The notes beneath the pieces were generated by a model, which was not told where the DNA came from, made no database searches, and saw nothing but the letters and a program-made list of their open reading frames with translations. A stretch of DNA of 64,000 bases from an uncultured Sphingomonadaceae bacterium. GTDB lineage: Bacteria > Pseudomonadota > Alphaproteobacteria > Sphingomonadales > Sphingomonadaceae. How positions within the stretch are numbered: position 1 is the first letter of the stretch; each line of letters starts with the position of its first letter. Both the position numbers and the translations under genes were made by a program. The stretch spans positions 1,129,375 through 1,193,374 of the forward strand of contig CANLQI010000001.1 of NCBI GenBank assembly GCA_947493325.1, written 5' to 3'. Positions 39,340 through 47,524 of the stretch are shown piece by piece.

Positions 39340-40388
39340 AGCGGCCACCCATGGTCTCTGATCATTACATATCCGCTCACTATAACCACCCATATCAGCG
39401 CGAGTGGCAGGAAGATTTTCCAGCCCAGGCGCATCAACTGGTCATAACGGTAACGCGGCACCGTCGCCATCACCCAGCTGAAGATAAAGAAAAACACGAA
39501 TATTTTCAGGAACAGCCAGACAATGCCGGGAACGGCATAGAGCGGTTCCCAGTCAATCGGCGGCAACCAGCCACCCCAGAACAGGATCGCGTTGAGTGCG
39601 CACATCAGCAGGATGTTCGCATATTCGCCGAGCCAGAACAGCGCGAAACTCATCGAGCTGTACTCGGTCTGATACCCGGCCACGAGTTCGGATTCCGCTT
39701 CGGTCAGGTCAAATGGATGCCGTGCGGTTTCCGCCATCGCAGAGATCAGGAACACGACCGCCATCGGGAAAAGCATCGGATTCAGGCCATAGGCATTGAC
39801 CACGCCGCCGATATGGCCTTTTTGCGCCATGATGATATCGCTCAGGTTGAAAGTCCCCGCCATCAAAACAACGCTTATCAGCGTAAAACCTATGGAAACT
39901 TCATAGGAAATCATCTGCGCCGCCGCGCGCATGGAGGAAAAGAACGGATATTTCGAGTTGGATGCCCAGCCCGAAATCACGACGCCATAGACCCCAAGCG
40001 AGCTAATCGCCAGGATATACAGCAGGCCGACATTAATGTCGGACAGCACCGCCGTTTCGCTGAACGGAATTACAGCCCATGCCAGCAGTGCCACCGTAAA
40101 GGTTATAATCGGCGCAATGATAAACAGGCCCTTGTTGGCACCCGATGGAATAATGGTTTCCTGCAGGAACACCTTGATACCATCGGCAAAACTTTGCAGC
40201 AGACCAAATGGTCCCACCACATTGGGACCCTTGCGCAATGCCATCGCGGCCCAGATCTTGCGGTCGCAATAGATGATAATCGCCACCGCGAGCATAAGCG
40301 GAAAGGCAATCAGCAGAATGCCGCAGATCGTGGCCACAAACCACGCTGCTTCATAATTCATGCCCAGAGATTGGAAAAATTCTGTCAT
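39336..40388 (-). CDS. nuoH: NADH-quinone oxidoreductase subunit H
   Basis: 350-aa polytopic ND1 homologue. Confidence 0.95.
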
Positions 40389-42397
40389 TCCGCCGCCTCC
40401 AGCATATCATCCGCATGCAGCAGTTCCGCCGAACAGCGCTGCATGGTTGCGCTGGCGCGCGCGATCGAGTTTGTCAGGTAGAAATCCTTGATCGGATAGC
40501 TAAGCGCGCCTTCGCACTTGCTTTCCAGCTTGGGCGGTGCCCAGTCATAGCTCGCCAATCCTTCATTGCCGAGCGCAGGAACGGCTTTTGCCATGGCCGC
40601 GCGGCATTCTGCAAAACTGTCAAATGGCAGCGTATGGCCCAGCACATCGGACAAAGCCCGCAATATCGACCAGTCTTCGCGCGCATCACCCGGAGCAAAC
40701 ACCGCCTTGTTGGAAAATTGCACGCGTCCTTCCAGATTGACGTAGGTGCCGTTCTTTTCAGGGTAAGCCGCTGCGGGCAGAATGACATCCGCCGCATGCG
40801 CGCCCGCATCGCCGTGATGGCCGATATAGACTTTGAAGCTGTCTTTAAACTGGCCATAATCCATCTCATCCGCGCCCAATGCGAACAACAGCGCCGGTTT
40901 GGCCGCAACAATATCTGCCAATCCGCCTTTTTGCGCGTAACCAAGCATCAGTCCGCCCATGCGTGCGGCCGAGAAGTGCAGCACGTTAAAGCCGTTCCAG
41001 TCGTCACGGACCATCTTGAATTTGCCCGCCAGTTTGAGCGCTGCGCCGTGCACGCCCTCCATGGCCAGAGCGCCGCCGCCCATGATGATCGCAGGTTTGT
41101 CCGCCCCTTTCAGCGCATCGGAGACAGCTTTTGGCAGCTTGCCGAGCACCTTGGCATCCTCGCCCAGCCATTCGGCTTTATAGGTCAGATCGACCTCAGG
41201 GCCGACGGCGAAAACTTTCGCACCGCGCTTGATCGCCTTGCGGACGCGCGTATTCACCAATGGCGCTTCCCAGCGCAAATTTGTCCCGATCAGCAGGATG
41301 GCATCGGCTTCCTCGATACCGTTCATCGTGCTGTTGAAATTGACGGCTGCGAGGTTGCTGGTGTCGTAGGCCAGGCCTGTCTGACGGCCTTCCAGCATTT
41401 TTGAGCCCATGGCGGCAAGCAATTCACGCGCGGCAAACATAGTTTCACAATCCACCATATCACCGGCAACAGCGGCCACGGACTTGCCCGCTTTCTTGGC
41501 GACTTTGGCAATTGCCTTGAACGCTTCATCCCAGCTTGCCTCGACCAGTTTGCCGCTTTTGCGCACAAATGGCTTGTCGAGCCGGCGGCGCACCAGGCCA
41601 TCGACCATATAGCGCGTTTTGTCGGTCGCCCATTCCTCGTTCACGTCATCATTGACACGCGGCAGCACGCGCAGCACTTCCCTGCCCCGGCTGTCGAAAC
41701 GAATATTGGTGCCGACCGCGTCAGACACATCGATGCCGAGCGTTTTCTTCAGCTCCCACGGGCGCGCTTCAAACGCATAGGGCTTGGAGGTCAGCGCGCC
41801 CACCGGGCACAGGTCAATCACATTGCCCGAAAGCTCGCTATGCACCGCCTGTTCCAGATAGCTGGTAATCTGCATGCTTTCGCCGCGGCCAATCGCGCCG
41901 ATTTCCTCGACACCGGCCACTTCTTCGGAAAAACGGACACAGCGGGTGCAATGGATGCAGCGTGTCATGACTGTCTTGACGATCGGCCCCATATATTTTT
42001 CGGTGACTGCGCGCTTGTTTTCCTCAAAGCGTGAACCGCCCCGGCCATAGGCAATCGCCTGATCCTGCAGATCGCATTCACCGCCCTGATCGCAGATCGG
42101 ACAATCAAGTGGATGGTTGATAAGCAGAAATTCCATCACGCCTTCACGCGCCTTTTTCACCATTTCGGTGTCGGTGCGAATTTCCTGTCCTTCGGTGGCG
42201 GGCAGCGCGCAGCTCGCCTGCGGCTTGGGCGGTCCAGGCTTTACCTCGACCAGACACATGCGGCAGTTGCCGGCAATGGACAGCCGCTCATGATAACAGA
42301 AACGCGGAATTTCCTTGCCCGCAAGCTCCGCTGCCTGCAGTACAGTTGCGCCCTGCGGGACTTCCAGTTCTAGGCCATCTACGGTGACTTTAGGCAT
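40385..42397 (-). CDS. nuoG: NADH-quinone oxidoreductase subunit G
   Basis: N-terminal 2Fe-2S/4Fe-4S region (CYHERLSIAGNCRMCLVE, CIHCTRCVRF). 670 aa. Confidence 0.96.
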   Translation of the reverse strand: MPKVTVDGLELEVPQGATVLQAAELAGKEIPRFCYHERLSIAGNCRMCLVEVKPGPPKPQASCALPATEGQEIRTDTEMVKKAREGVMEFLLINHPLDCPICDQGGECDLQDQAIAYGRGGSRFEENKRAVTEKYMGPIVKTVMTRCIHCTRCVRFSEEVAGVEEIGAIGRGESMQITSYLEQAVHSELSGNVIDLCPVGALTSKPYAFEARPWELKKTLGIDVSDAVGTNIRFDSRGREVLRVLPRVNDDVNEEWATDKTRYMVDGLVRRRLDKPFVRKSGKLVEASWDEAFKAIAKVAKKAGKSVAAVAGDMVDCETMFAARELLAAMGSKMLEGRQTGLAYDTSNLAAVNFNSTMNGIEEADAILLIGTNLRWEAPLVNTRVRKAIKRGAKVFAVGPEVDLTYKAEWLGEDAKVLGKLPKAVSDALKGADKPAIIMGGGALAMEGVHGAALKLAGKFKMVRDDWNGFNVLHFSAARMGGLMLGYAQKGGLADIVAAKPALLFALGADEMDYGQFKDSFKVYIGHHGDAGAHAADVILPAAAYPEKNGTYVNLEGRVQFSNKAVFAPGDAREDWSILRALSDVLGHTLPFDSFAECRAAMAKAVPALGNEGLASYDWAPPKLESKCEGALSYPIKDFYLTNSIARASATMQRCSAELLHADDMLEAAE

Positions 42398-43046
42398 GCT
42401 CTAAAGCCTTTCTAATGAGAAGTTGCTTTAATAGCTTTCGTCTAAAGTTGATTGCCTCACTAAAAATAACCTGAAAGTCATCAGAACAAGCAGAACCTAT
42501 TTTATAAAAGTGATTATCAAAAACACCTTTTTTATTCATAAATTTAGATATACTTTTTTCTTTATTACGAGTTTTTCTCAATTTATCATTAAAGTATGCT
42601 TGATCCTTTTCATACATACAGCTTGCTAAATATCTCGCATAATAAAATTCAAAACTTTCGCCCTTTCGAAAAATATCTAATTTATAATGAGGCATAGTTC
42701 GATCATTATTTTTATACCATTTAACTAACTTATTCCGATAATCTGTAAAACAATCGGTTTTCTTTAGTATAATTCTTGTAGGAATTTCATTATATGAATA
42801 CTTAGCTTTAGAAATATTCAGGAAAGTTTCGGAAGAAGATTTAGGATATTGTTCAAAATAACAATAAAATGCTTCAGAATTAAGTGGAGGCGAATTATTA
42901 GTACGAATACTATATTTACTTTGATAGATTTTTGATACATATTTTGTTGAGATATAATCACTTGCTTCATAATCTCGTGCGTTTGCAACATTAAAAAATG
43001 AAACAAATAATACTAGGCTAGAAACTAAAATAACGCTTTTGATCAC
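42390..43046 (-). CDS. AT-rich (about 27% GC) gene for a secreted 218-aa protein of unknown family, inserted between nuoF and nuoG
   Basis: Uninterrupted 218 codons in very AT-rich DNA. The GTG start overlaps the nuoF TGA, with GGAGG-N7 upstream. The TAA overlaps the nuoG start by 8 nt. Sec signal peptide [25 protein letters not shown]. Confidence 0.8.
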
Positions 43047-44371
43047 TCCGCCGCCTCCATGATTTCTTCATTGCCGCCCTGGCGCTCGCGGATGCGGCGT
43101 TCCATTTCGGGGCGGAAGTGATGGATGAGGCCCTGGATCGGCCAGGCCGCAGCGTCGCCAAGCGCGCAGATTGTATGCCCTTCGACCTGCTTTGTTACTT
43201 CATATAAAGTATCAATATCTTCGATTTCGGCATTGCCATCACGCATTTTTTCCATCACACGCCACATCCAGCCCGTGCCTTCGCGGCACGGTGTGCACTG
43301 GCCGCAGCTTTCGTGTTTGTAGAAATAGCTGAGACGGGAAATCGCACGGACGATATCGGTCGATTTATCCATCACAATAACCGCCGCCGTACCTAGGCCG
43401 GAACCGACATCTTTCAGGCCATCAAAGTCCATTGGCGCGGCCATAATCTGTTCCGCAGGAACCAATGGCACTGATGAGCCGCCCGGGATAACTGCCAGCA
43501 GATTGTCCCAGCCACCGGTAATGCCGCCGCAATGCTTTTCGATCATATCGCGGAACGGGATTGACATGGCCTCTTCAAATACAGCCGGTTTTTCAACATG
43601 GCCCGATACCTGAAACAGTTTCGTGCCCTTGTTATTCTCCCGCCCAAAGCTTGCGAACCATGCGCCGCTGCGCCGTATGATGGTGGGCACGACCGCGATG
43701 GATTCCACATTGTTGACCGTAGTCGGACAGCCATAAAGGCCCGCACCGGCGGGAAATGGCGGTTTCAGGCGCGGTTGGCCCTTCTTGCCTTCCAGGCTTT
43801 CGATCATCGCGGTTTCTTCGCCGCAGATATAGGCACCTGCACCGCGGTGTACGAACACGTCGAAATCATAACCGGAGCCAGCGGCATTTTTACCGATCAG
43901 GCCTGCATCATAGGCTTCCGCCACCGCTTTTTCGAGTGCGATGGCCTCGGCAATATATTCACCGCGAATATAGATATAGGCGGCGCGTGCACGCATCGCG
44001 AAACCCGCCACCAGCGCGCCTTCGATCAGCTTGTGCGGGTCGCCGCGCATGATTTCGCGGTCCTTGCATGATCCGGGTTCGGATTCATCGGCATTGATGA
44101 CGAGGAAACTGGGCCGCGGATTTCCGCGCGCATCTTTGGGGGCTTCCTTGGGCATAAAAGACCATTTTAGGCCGGTCGGGAACCCTGCTCCGCCGCGGCC
44201 ACGCAGGCCGGACGCCTTTATTTCCTCAATAATCTTGTCGTTGCCAAGCGCAATCAGGTCCTTGGTATTGTCCCAGTCCCCGCGCGCCTGCGCGGCTTTC
44301 AGGTCAGGTGACTGAAAGCCATAGACGTTTGTAAAGATACGGTCCTTGTCCTGGAGAAAGTCAAAGCTCAT
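43043..44371 (-). CDS. nuoF: NADH-quinone oxidoreductase subunit F
   Basis: FMN/NADH site [12 protein letters not shown] and a 4Fe-4S region ([12 protein letters not shown]). I trimmed the start from 44539 to the ATG at 44371 ([15 protein letters not shown]). Confidence 0.95.
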
Positions 44372-44523
44372 AAGGTACCTCCGCCCATGGTGAACCAGAG
44401 CGCCGCGGCAATTGCGATGGCCGCGATAATGCCCACGGTTTTCAAGATGCCGGTCAGCACCTTGAACGCGATAAACAGCAGGATAAGGCCGATAATGACC
44501 GGCAGTAGCGATTCCATCACCAT
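44368..44523 (-). CDS. Micro-ORF (51 aa, or 49 from the ATG at 44517) encoding a two-TM membrane peptide between nuoE and nuoF
   Basis: [51 protein letters not shown]. The ATG overlaps the nuoE TGA, the TGA overlaps the nuoF ATG (ATGA), and GGGGGGA lies upstream. Too short for the ORF track. Confidence 0.6.
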
Positions 44524-45182
44524 TCCCCCCGGTAATCATGGTTTGTATCGACCATTTCCTTGAGCACCACAGGCCCGCCTTCGGGCTCGCTGGTCTTGCG
44601 GCCCGTCTGCGATCCCGGTGTCACCTCACGGCCTGCGGCCAGATTTTCCAGGATTTTGGTGGTGATGTCATAGTCCAGATCCTCGAAATTATCGTCATTG
44701 ATCTGCACCATCGGCGCGTTGGAGCAATTACCCATGCACTCGACTTCGGTGAGCGTAAATAGCCCGTCGGGCGTGGTTTTGCCCTTAACCATCCCCTTGT
44801 TCTTGCACGCCGCCATGACGTCATCGGACCCGCGCAGCATGCACGGCGTGGTGCCGCACACCTGCACATGATATTTGCCCACGGGCGCAAGGTTGTACAT
44901 GGTGTAGAAGCTCGCGACCTCATAGGCGCGCATATAGGGCATATCGAGATAGGCCGCGACATATTCGATCACCGGCACGGGCAGCCAGCCCTGCGTATCG
45001 GTATCCGTCCCCACCTGACGCTGCGCCAGGTCAAGCAACGGCATCACGGCGCTGCGCTGCCGTCCTTCGGGATAGCGTGCCACATATATTTTCGCTTTTT
45101 CATCATTCTCTGGCGTGAAGGCAAAATTGCCCCACTTCGCGCGGACTTCGATTTCGTCGGGGATATTGGGTGTGTCAGCCAT
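44517..45182 (-). CDS. nuoE: NADH-quinone oxidoreductase subunit E
   Basis: 2Fe-2S ligand regions [11 protein letters not shown] and [11 protein letters not shown]. 221 aa. Confidence 0.95.
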
Positions 45183-45357
45183 GAATCAGCCTTTTTTGAA
45201 TGTAACGACCAACATATAATCCGATTATTGCAGCAGAAACCGTCGACAGCACTTCTTTTACGCTGAATGCACCATGGAACGCATATAAATACGCCGCAAC
45301 TCCGGATGCGAATGCGGTGCACGCAAGAATAAAAATAAGAAGTTCGCGAAGTATCAC
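45175..45357 (-). CDS. Small ORF (60 aa) encoding a two-TM membrane peptide between nuoD and nuoE
   Basis: [60 protein letters not shown]. The GTG overlaps the nuoD TGA (GTGA), with GGGGAG-N8 upstream. The stop lies 5 nt past the nuoE ATG. Confidence 0.55.
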
Positions 45358-46586
45358 CGGTCGCACTCCCCGAATACCACGTCGATCGCGCCCAAAATAG
45401 CTGTAGCATCTGGCAGCATATGGCCTTTGCACATAAAATCCATGGCCTGCAGGTGACTAAATGCCGTGGGGCGTATCTTGCAGCGATAGGGCTTGTTGCT
45501 GCCATCGCTGACCAAATAGACGCCAAATTCGCCTTTAGGGCTTTCGGTGGCGACATAGACTTCGCCTGCCGGGACATGGAAGCCTTCTGTGTAGAGCTTG
45601 AAATGGTGGATGAGTGCTTCCATCGACTGCTTCATCTCGCTGCGCTTGGGCGGAACGACTTTACGGTCGGTTGAGGCAATCGGACCTTCGGGCATTTCGT
45701 TCAGGCACTGGCGCATAATGCGTGCGGATTGATATACTTCCTCCACACGGACCATGAAGCGGTCGTAACAATCGCCTTTTGTACCCACCGGAATATCAAA
45801 TTCCATCCGGTCATAGACATCATAGGGCTGTGATTTGCGCAGATCCCACGCGATGCCCGCACCGCGAATCATCGGACCGGAAAAGCCCCATTTGACGGCA
45901 TCGTCCTTGCTGACGGTGGCGATATCGACATTGCGCTGTTTGAAAATGCGGTTGTCCACGACCAGGCTCATCGCATCGGCGAACTGTTTCGGGAATGTGT
46001 CGAGCCAGTCGGCGAGATCGGTGAGCAGTTTCAACGGTACATCCTGATGCACACCGCCGGGACGGAACCAGGCACTGTGCATACGTGCACCCGATGCGCG
46101 TTCAAAGAAATTCAGGCAATCCTCGCGGATTTCAAACACCCACAGATTCGGCGTCATTGCGCCCACATCCATGACGTGCGCACCGATATTGAGCATATGG
46201 TTGCAGATACGTGTCAATTCGGCGAACAGCACGCGCAGATACTGCGCACGTAGCGGCACTTCGAGATCAAGCAGTTTCTCAATCGCCAGCACATAGCTAT
46301 ATTCCTGCGCCAGCGGAGAGCAGTAATCGAGCCGGTCAAAATAGGGTAAAGCCTGTAGATACGTCTTATGTTCGATCAGTTTTTCGGTGCCGCGGTGGAG
46401 CAGGCCGACATGCGGATCGATGCGTTCGATAATCTCGCCGTCCAGCTCCATTACCATGCGCAGAACGCCGTGCGCCGCCGGGTGCTGCGGGCCGAAATTG
46501 ATCGTGTAATTCTGAATTTCCGTATCACCGACAGTTGGATCAGCGGCATCGGTTTCACCCAGCGTTTCTTCGAGATAATCAGCCAT
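45354..46586 (-). CDS. nuoD: NADH-quinone oxidoreductase subunit D
   Basis: [13 protein letters not shown] motif. 410 aa. Confidence 0.96.
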
Positions 46587-47524
46587 TATGCTTTACCTCC
46601 ATCTTTTTTCTTTGCCGCTTTTTTAGGGGCCGCCTTCTTGGCAGGCGCTTTTTTGGGAACCGCTTTCTTTGCGCCCGCCTTGCTCACCTTGGCTTTTGCT
46701 GTGCGCGGTTTTTTAGCGCCAGCACCTTTTTTGGCCGTACCGGATTTGGTACGCTTGGGTGCGGGCTTTTTGACCTTGCTGTCATCCTGCGCCGGACTGC
46801 CTTCGGTTTCTCTTTCAGCCGCGGCCTTATTGGTTTTTTTGCCTGCGCCCGTGTCAGCAGGTTTTTCCGTGGTTTTCGGTTTATCTACGCTCGGCGCCTC
46901 GGCATCCGCCTTTTCATCGCCAGGCAGCACATAATCTGCCCCCTCCCATGGTGACATAAAATCAAAACTGCGAAAATCCTGCGCCAGTTTTACCGGTTCA
47001 TAGATAACACGCTTATGCTCTTCGCTATACCGCATTTCGACATGCCCCGTGAGCGGAAAATCCTTGCGGAAGGGATGGCCGCGAAAGCCATAATCGGTGA
47101 GAATACGGCGCAGGTCGGGATTGCCTGCAAAAAGAACACCGTAAAGGTCGTAGACCTCACGTTCCAGCCACCCGGCAACCGGCCACAGATGTGTCACAGT
47201 GGGCACCGGCGTGTCTTCGTCTGTGCTCACCTTGACCCGAACACGGTGGTTTTTGGTGAGGCTGAGCAAGTGATAACACACCTCAAACCGCTCGGAGCGA
47301 TCAGGATAATCAACACCGGCAATTTCCATAAGCTGCTGATATTCATGGTCATCACACAAAAGCTGCAGCGCATCTGCAATGCTGCCGCGCTGCACGGTAA
47401 AGCTGATCTCACCATGCGCCTCAACCGTATCAATCAGCATTGCACCCAATGCCGCGCCCAGCTGCGCCGCAACACCGTAATTGCTTGCTATTTTCGGAGC
47501 CGAATGTGCCATGTTACCGTTCAA
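46586..47524 (-). CDS. nuoC: NADH-quinone oxidoreductase subunit C, with a C-terminal Lys/Ala/Pro-rich extension of about 105 aa
   Basis: The NuoC core ends near ...[15 protein letters not shown]. The tail is ...[64 protein letters not shown] start at 47524, or ATG at 47512. Confidence 0.92.

Follow-up and report, generated by a model that had tools for sequence, protein, structure and literature searches.

The 64,000-nucleotide stretch of contig CANLQI010000001.1 analysed here (the window), from an uncultured Sphingomonadaceae bacterium, carries a cluster of nuo genes for respiratory complex I. The junction between nuoF (43043..44371, minus strand) and nuoG (40385..42397, minus) is filled by an additional open reading frame (ORF), which we call ORFx (42390..43046, minus; 218 codons and a TAA stop). 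Its most conspicuous property is its base composition. The GC content is 0.275 overall and 0.338, 0.311 and 0.178 at the three codon positions in turn, compared with 0.566 in nuoF, 0.583 in nuoG and 0.63-0.67 at the third codon positions (GC3) of these flanks. The drop is confined to the ORF: GC in 200-nt windows falls to 0.24-0.27 only within 42400-43000 and lies at 0.55-0.6 on either side, which bears out the compositional collapse at the gene borders described in a first-pass annotation of this DNA. The approximately 54 other ORFs of the window span GC3 values of 0.47-0.72, leaving ORFx as the sole outlier, and ORFx lies below the intergenic DNA as well (pooled GC 0.472, lowest 300-nt window elsewhere 0.377).

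Both ends of ORFx are interlocked with the neighbouring genes. The GTG start (43046-43044) overlaps the nuoF TGA (43045-43043) in a GTGA at 43043..43046 (minus), and a GGAGG Shine-Dalgarno (SD) sequence at 43054..43058 (minus) lies 7 nt upstream of the GTG, within the conserved C-terminal codons of NuoF (M-E-A-A-E). At the other end, the nuoG ATG (42397-42395) is embedded in the last codons of ORFx within the overlap ATGCCTAA (42390..42397, minus), and the TAA of ORFx (42392-42390) is built from codons 2-3 of nuoG, so that ORFx ends 5 nt into nuoG. The only SD-like sequence for nuoG is a weak AGAAAGG at 42407..42413 (minus), 9 nt upstream of its ATG. From these overlaps the first-pass annotation had concluded that ORFx is translationally coupled at both ends; the overlap architecture is present in every element, and the coupling itself, judged from that architecture, appears to hold. 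An in-frame deletion of ORFx would restore the junction sequence GAGTAATG.

Scans of ORFx found neither inverted repeats nor flanking direct repeats, terminator and Rfam scans returned neither a terminator nor a match, promoter-like sites are not above chance, and domain searches returned no transposase, integrase or endonuclease. This agrees with the earlier reading of the locus, which had seen no inverted repeats, target-site duplication or transposase and endonuclease motifs. In the window no copy of the nuoF tail precedes nuoG (best match 8/15), nor is an element resembling a miniature inverted-repeat transposable element (MITE), known from the junctions of other genomes, present there.

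Is ORFx a gene at all? Stop codons are expected at 0.087 per codon at its base composition, which gives a probability of 2.5e-9 for 217 open codons. Because of this value, the full-length homologues, the 22 invariant alignment columns and the structural model described below, we regard ORFx as a real, constrained gene, and the earlier argument from the open frame is upheld.

The encoded protein begins with a predicted Sec signal peptide (residues 1-23; 42978..43046, minus), read from the sequence as K3, a hydrophobic core and A-N-A followed by R24. The product is probably exported by Sec, with cleavage presumably after Ala23. The mature domain (residues 24-218; 42393..42977, minus) is predicted by an AlphaFold 2 (AF2) model and by alignment to be all-helical and to consist of two repeat-like halves. 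The first half carries Cys62 and Cys99 (codons 42863-42861 and 42752-42750, minus) and the second Cys143 and Cys187 (42620-42618 and 42488-42486, minus), at separations of 37, 44 and 44 residues; these are the four cysteines already reported, and they are invariant in the homologues. Each repeat, with its one Cys pair, probably holds one disulfide. The model has a predicted local distance difference test (pLDDT) score of 78.8 and a predicted template modelling (pTM) score of 0.77, with pLDDT below 50 for residues 1-22.

The first-pass annotation recognised no family for this protein, and database searches lead to the same result. Pfam, NCBIfam, PADLOC and PHROGs searches with ORFx and with representative cargo, that is, ORFs found at the same junction elsewhere, gave nothing above noise. 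The sole PADLOC match of ORFx was JetA (E 0.003, 14.7 bits), which its homologues do not match, and PHROG profiles did not match ORFx. Searching PDB sequences with ORFx alone, or with either of the two profiles, returned no match. Foldseek comparisons of two AF2 models (ORFx and the large junction family introduced below) gave no fold match in the PDB at E <0.8, and nothing at E <0.39 with the comparison of the large-family model to the viral structures of BFVD included. Twin Cx9C (CHCH) motifs were not found in ORFx, given its Cys spacing of 37/44/44.

Relatives of ORFx and the contents of the nuoF-nuoG junction

A word-indexed protein search returned ORFx alone, from one contig. A phmmer search of 1.84 billion representatives recovered the full-length relatives P0002, P0003 and P0004 (E 2.9e-9, 5.2e-7 and 3.1e-6; 23-28% identity over residues ~17-216), and a profile search extended the set by P0005 and by P0006 of Parerythrobacter lacustris, with all six proteins recovered at E 1e-77 or better. 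The five distant homologues show 22-30% identity. The six-protein alignment of this ORFx subfamily (A2) has 22 invariant columns, all four Cys among them, and all six N-termini are hydrophobic with A-x-A-type sites. Phages and plasmids searched by tblastn with ORFx yielded no relatives, nor did metagenome and viral contigs scanned for patterns from ORFx or A2.

All four homologues whose loci were checked (P0002 at L081, P0004 at L082, P0003 at L083 and P0006 at L166) have their genes at the nuoF-nuoG junction, in the orientation of the nuo genes. At L082 and L166 the order is tandem: one or more cassettes of a second, larger family, then the ORFx type, then nuoG. The P0002 gene has a host-like GC of 0.63, and the genes of P0003, P0004 and P0006 are moderately lowered. 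The first-pass annotation had named the same gene at host-like GC and with a known family in most relatives as evidence that would speak against a foreign origin; homologues do occupy the slot, one of them at host-like GC, and a named family is not attached to them. The P0002 locus holds in addition a second slot ORF (L081:782-1192, 136 aa) with a retropepsin-like aspartyl protease domain (PF13650, 25 bits), so that very different cargo can share the slot.

The larger family consists of ORFs of 200-260 aa with four invariant Cys and an all-helical fold (AF2 model: pLDDT 83.3, pTM 0.77). A signal peptide or hydrophobic N-terminus is kept in 56 of its 66 cassettes, and an internal duplication is evident from the match of its N-terminal to its C-terminal half (98.9%, E 3e-17). 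No Pfam or NCBIfam model was found for it, and its named database matches are hypothetical proteins of Sphingomonadales throughout. The order of helices and Cys in the AF2 models of ORFx and the large family (not superposed) is similar, with one helix fewer in the N-terminal half of ORFx.

Are the two families related? The mature P0002, P0004, P0005 and P0006 score 10-15 bits against the hidden Markov model (HMM) of the large family, and none of 300 shuffles scored as high. An hhalign comparison of A2 with A3, one of two large-family alignments (A3, A4), gave E 1.5e-4 and a probability of 52%, with the cysteines of the first pair aligned. The two halves of the subfamily align to each other at E 0.009 with Cys in register, and each half matches the N-terminal half of the large family at E 5e-4 to 9e-4. 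Detection of ORFx was no better with a single-repeat profile derived from the two large-family halves. From transitivity through P0002-P0006, synteny and architecture, we conclude that ORFx is best described as a divergent member of one slot-specific Sphingomonadales superfamily.

A further group of cargo ORFs (L010:4642-5310, L017:7305-7886, L077:7299-7880, L156:4802-5314 and L074:7296-7619) has in common a signal peptide or lipobox together with the motif W-A-A-C-(V/I)-W-x3-A-P-x5-W. Its matches to the large-family HMM are weak (E 0.004-0.2), and it may represent a third branch of the same superfamily.

The contents of the junction were surveyed in 80 loci from each of two sources, species-representative genomes and metagenomes, gathered through NuoF, which yielded 149 complete junctions; a few contigs may occur in both collections. 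The genes are joined directly, by TAATG or a 2-6 nt spacer, in 69 junctions, while 55 carry one to three copies of the large family, 17 other ORFs, seven short non-coding inserts (several of them MITE-like) and one the ORFx subfamily only. The four-Cys exported superfamily is found at this junction in ~37% of the examined Sphingomonadales genomes, mostly near host GC. The claim of a foreign gene at this junction is therefore sustained in part: ORFx is a compositional outlier and the nearest genome differs, but an isolated insertion does not fit a site so commonly occupied. The contents of further loci point the same way, as P0041 and P0044 also lie in the nuoF-nuoG slot, and all contexts seen, six unbiased look-ups and ~66 cassettes in fetched loci, are nuoF-nuoG. 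Of the 18 slot ORFs outside the family, 11 are membrane-targeted. Exported or membrane cargo, for which the earlier annotation knew no precedent, is in Sphingomonadales the rule at this slot.

Occupied junctions almost always begin with ATGA or GTGA on the nuoF stop (L001 and L021 differ). At the far end, most either close with TAATG or continue into nuoG as far as the TAA of ATGCCTAA. TAATG is also the sequence of the empty junctions. The ATGCCTAA-type end recurs in the unrelated cargo of L010, L014, L017, L019, L021, L029 and L060, and the cistron-exact fit is the norm for every cargo type at the junction. The last 15 nt of nuoF, TGGAGGCGGCGGA, are conserved to at least 90% at most positions, third codon positions included, among 122 distinct tails, and the GGAGG within them serves nuoG where the junction is empty. 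This tail is a plausible short recombination anchor.

Several non-coding elements were encountered in the same survey. A MITE-like inverted-repeat element, GTCAYCCTGAACTTGTTYCAGG ... AAACAAGTTCAGCATGAC, is present at several nuo intercistronic junctions of other Sphingomonadales (L051 at 4887, 5003, 5728, 7317 and 9499; L054; L003; L011; L074; L082:3810-4000) and matches no Rfam family. The inserts in L051 and L125 are flanked by a 14/15-nt duplication of the nuoF tail. We considered for the slot an integron-like cassette or one bounded by direct repeats, and rejected it, as this duplication accompanies the MITE-like inserts only and neither the coding cassettes nor ORFx. Another repeat type, CGTCATTGCGAG..GCGAA, lies at the junction in L014:7335-7415 and L018:3190-3261, and the 79-aa junction ORFs of L087 and L088 (...RPEPVEGQPVR...LRQAQHERL...) are probably translated repeat DNA rather than genes.

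The slot is dynamic even between close relatives. By its NuoF the window belongs in Sphingomonadaceae. In its nearest available relative, the uncultured isolate L001, NuoF is 97.5% identical at the amino-acid level (compared with ~90% for Parasphingorhabdus) and the nuo flanks are 89-90% identical in nucleotide sequence: 89.6% along nuoF up to 43037, where homology stops, and 89.0% along nuoG, where it resumes at the ATG at 42397 exactly. In place of ORFx the L001 slot holds an unrelated 122-aa membrane ORF; the slot content must therefore have been altered after the divergence of the two lineages. Identity in the flanks does not fall next to the slot, on which ground an import of ORFx together with divergent flanking DNA was rejected.

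Other pairs display the same pattern, homology breaking off at the borders of the cistrons. The flanks of L058 and L113 are 92-94% identical in nucleotide sequence and their large-family cargo 27.6% identical; those of L093 and L094 are 93-95% identical with cargo unalignable at the nucleotide level. Because neutral divergence in place cannot exceed the synonymous divergence of the flanks, such pairs indicate allele replacement, with the sorting of old tandem paralogues as an alternative. Within allele lineages of the large family, the ratio of non-synonymous to synonymous substitution rates (dN/dS) is 0.07-0.30, which indicates purifying selection on the slot proteins. The earlier suggestion that ORFx is hard to lose owing to a dependence of nuoG on it is contradicted by the precisely empty junctions and by replacement between near-identical strains.

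Origin and role of ORFx

What, then, is ORFx? We consider it probable that it is a functional, very divergent and AT-rich allele of the Sphingomonadales-only superfamily of this slot, that the slot behaves as a replacement island and that an envelope protein is the favoured product. Ribosomes finishing nuoF at the UGA would restart at the overlapping GUG by means of the GGAGG in the NuoF tail. The product would be exported by Sec and cut after Ala23. Translation would stop at the UAA, 5 nt within nuoG, and re-initiate at the nuoG AUG, which in the window seems to be without the strong SD that serves nuoG in empty slots. It is possible that the 19 host-rare codons of ORFx throttle nuoG. Comparison shows that the slot as a whole acts like a miniature replacement island, which is empty or holds one to three cassettes or unrelated small ORFs; recombination within the conserved flanks, nuoF and nuoG, would be the means by which alleles are exchanged.

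On function we are more tentative, and the following proposal falls somewhat short of even chances. ORFx would encode an envelope or periplasmic protein subject to diversifying or frequency-dependent selection between allele classes and purifying selection within them, profiting from the constitutive expression of nuo, and would not be a core assembly factor of complex I. This is favoured because deep allelic divergence, purifying selection within lineages, easy loss or replacement and envelope targeting coincide in the slot proteins.

A number of points weigh against this interpretation. Superfamily membership is argued without a direct significant match: ORFx itself scores 3.4-4.4 bits against the large-family HMM, and one of 300 shuffles reaches 3.4 bits. 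Export, disulfides and translational coupling are readings of the sequence. Since the loci were collected through NuoF, the six context look-ups are the only unbiased evidence of confinement to the slot, and strict confinement to the nuo operon could instead reflect a role in complex I. No defence, phage or structural match links the protein to an envelope process. As regards composition, a family restricted to genomes of 50-68% GC fits poorly with an allele that looks equilibrated at ~28%, ORFx is AT-richer than any intergenic DNA of the window, and searches of protein, metagenome, phage, plasmid and viral data brought up no AT-rich donor.

The AT content of ORFx presents a puzzle. The Muto-Osawa and Lawrence-Ochman relations provide expected GC values for codon positions and a gauge of amelioration; by these, ORFx is near equilibrium at ~28% GC and bears no sign of amelioration (its GC3 of 0.18 is set in a host genome of 53% GC), which argues for recent import from an AT-rich background. 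Phe, Tyr, Met, Ile, Asn and Lys make up 44% of its residues and 24-30% in homologues, so AT pressure must have acted long enough to remodel the protein. Counter to import, the sole relatives of ORFx reside at the same slot in GC-rich sphingomonads. The alternative is an AT drift specific to the slot, for example of cargo that lacks recombination partners and codon selection. A general trend supports it, as 48 of 50 cargo genes are richer in AT than the nuoF beside them (difference in GC3 -0.01 to -0.32), with ORFx (-0.45) as the extreme; such drift would have to go far past the GC of intergenic DNA. Two origins appear to us about equally likely: import from an AT-rich donor outside the sampled genomes, and the far end of slot-wide drift.

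Several other explanations have to be weighed against a divergent resident allele. The main rival makes the exported helical disulfide protein an accessory or assembly factor on the P side of sphingomonad complex I, where it would dock on the membrane arm from the periplasm or aid its biogenesis. The constant residence of the gene in the nuo operon would thereby be explained, and both the low dN/dS and the small membrane ORFs at the nuoD-nuoE and nuoE-nuoF junctions of the window accord with it. Mitochondrial complex I has CHCH (twin Cx9C) subunits of the intermembrane space, NDUFA8, NDUFS5 and NDUFB7, which are small helical disulfide proteins of the P side, as is predicted for ORFx, but ORFx differs from them in lacking Cx9C spacing and any PDB sequence or fold match and in being dispensable in about half of the relatives. 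Mammalian complex I carries the helical, disulfide-bonded NDUFA8 and NDUFS5 on the equivalent side, but both are absent from the Paracoccus enzyme, whose 2.3 A structure is without any periplasmic supernumerary subunit (PMC11522691). The slot is, moreover, precisely empty in 46% of junctions, close relatives included; unrelated cargo replaces the family in L001, L014 and L060; ~25% identical alleles beside 92-95% identical nuo genes are hard to reconcile with docking on a conserved core; and the neighbouring cistrons encode the cytoplasmic N-module. We therefore regard a P-side factor as unlikely.

A more speculative combination, to which we give slightly less credence still, makes the slot a site of allele replacement for fast-diversifying P-side partners of complex I. 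These would be bacterial supernumerary subunits that parallel the mitochondrial CHCH proteins without being homologous to them, and their diversity would be driven by an antagonist (phage, toxin or competitor) at the periplasmic face. In a variant of it, the feature under selection would chiefly be the signal peptide or the transmembrane segment, by which the stretch of the long nuo mRNA that encodes the N-module would be anchored at the membrane while it is translated; this would explain the membrane-targeted unrelated cargo (11/18) and the small ORFs between nuoD, nuoE and nuoF.

ORFx could also be a one-off horizontal insertion from an AT-rich donor, unrelated to the usual content of the junction. 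The composition invites this reading, with GC 0.275 and GC3 0.178 against 0.57 and 0.63-0.67 in the flanks, no sign of amelioration, and AGA, CGA and TTA codons that are absent from nuoG; the nearest genome, L001, lacks the gene. Its only homologues, however, belong to GC-rich Sphingomonadales and the same slot, its subfamily is related to the resident family, neither homologues in the phages, plasmids, viral contigs and metagenomes searched nor mobility features were found, and the AT shift of the other cargo places ORFx at the far end of a trend rather than in a class of its own. Such an insertion seems improbable.

Still less can be said for a functionless hitch-hiker whose frame stays open merely to carry ribosomes to nuoG and prevent polarity. 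All cargo, unrelated orphans included, is cistron-exact and often borrows its stop from nuoG, the nuoG SD next to ORFx is weak, and the general AT shift of cargo is as expected under weak selection. A gene without function would nevertheless hardly retain four invariant Cys among 22 invariant columns across homologues 22-30% identical, a confidently predicted fold, dN/dS of 0.07-0.30 in the related large family and signal peptides in 56 of 66 family cassettes, and loss would be easy because empty TAATG junctions are common. We thus hold this to be very unlikely. An assembly chimera that joined in AT-rich DNA of another organism, suggested by the abrupt change of composition at both borders and by a protein known from a single contig, is practically negligible, given that both borders are in-frame translational overlaps as in dozens of independent genomes, that the product is homologous to proteins encoded at the exact slot elsewhere, and that flank identity to L001 extends to within 9 nt of the ORFx start and to the first base of nuoG.

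The slot and known systems

Complex I operons are usually regarded as among the most conserved and syntenic of bacterial gene clusters. Extra cistrons in them are not without parallel: an unidentified reading frame (URF) presumably lies between nqo1 (NuoF) and nqo3 (NuoG) in the nqo cluster of Paracoccus denitrificans. For Rhodobacter capsulatus, urf7 of the nuo cluster has been discussed (PMC9036352). These URFs, whose functions are at most predicted, resemble ORFx as same-strand cistrons packed tightly between core complex I genes. Named matches to the large family all come from Sphingomonadales, where, unlike in those clusters, the slot varies between close relatives, houses a resident exported four-Cys family and in one case holds a 27% GC allele.

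Replacement flexible genomic islands, such as the O-antigen (rfb) and capsule loci between conserved genes, offer another comparison. Divergent, unalignable alleles occur there in close strains at a fixed site between conserved flanks, the products belong to the envelope, the GC of the cargo is below that of the core, and purifying selection acts within lineages. The nuo slot differs in holding one to three small cistrons without their own promoter and not a multi-gene pathway, in being located inside a respiratory operon that is essential and co-translated rather than between operons, and in encoding a predicted periplasmic protein and not a surface polysaccharide; a link to phage or immune pressure was not found. 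Integron cassettes and free-standing homing-endonuclease genes are likewise promoterless single-gene units at a fixed site, dependent on upstream expression signals and with precise occupied and empty states, but the slot has no attC-like inverted repeat, integrase or endonuclease domain and no direct repeats around its coding cassettes.

Extra URFs in alphaproteobacterial complex I clusters and replacement islands with low-GC cargo are thus already known. We found no description of the nuoF-nuoG slot or its family in the literature on Sphingomonadales, nor of a hypervariable single-cistron slot in a complex I operon with a resident exported four-Cys family and a 27% GC allele. Throughout this order, a single intercistronic junction behaves as a hypervariable site for cassettes and houses a family without a name, Pfam model or structural analogue in PDB or BFVD. 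Contact of the slot proteins with complex I would make them the first accessory subunits on the periplasmic side of a bacterial enzyme; without such contact, they show accessory envelope genes exploiting translational coupling in an essential operon. The slot also offers a natural system for the effect of an inserted cistron on downstream subunit stoichiometry, for replacement through very short anchors and for the AT drift of cargo.

Other features of the nuo cluster

Additional small ORFs occupy the neighbouring junctions of the window. A strongly hydrophobic ORF of 51 aa (44368-44523, minus) fills the junction of nuoE and nuoF, its TGA overlapping the nuoF ATG (ATGA), and similar ORFs of 46-48 aa are found at the same junction in L082 and L165. 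Between nuoD and nuoE, an 85-aa ORF (45175-45432, minus) has predicted membrane helices, a composition that is also AT-shifted (GC 0.477, GC3 0.384) and, as its only Pfam match, a weak sub-threshold TauE. In nuoC (46586-47524, minus) the Complex1_30kDa domain ends at residue 161, and the 3' part of the gene (46586-46900) encodes a C-terminal tail of ~110 residues rich in Lys, Ala and Pro, visible in the DNA as an AT skew of -0.66.

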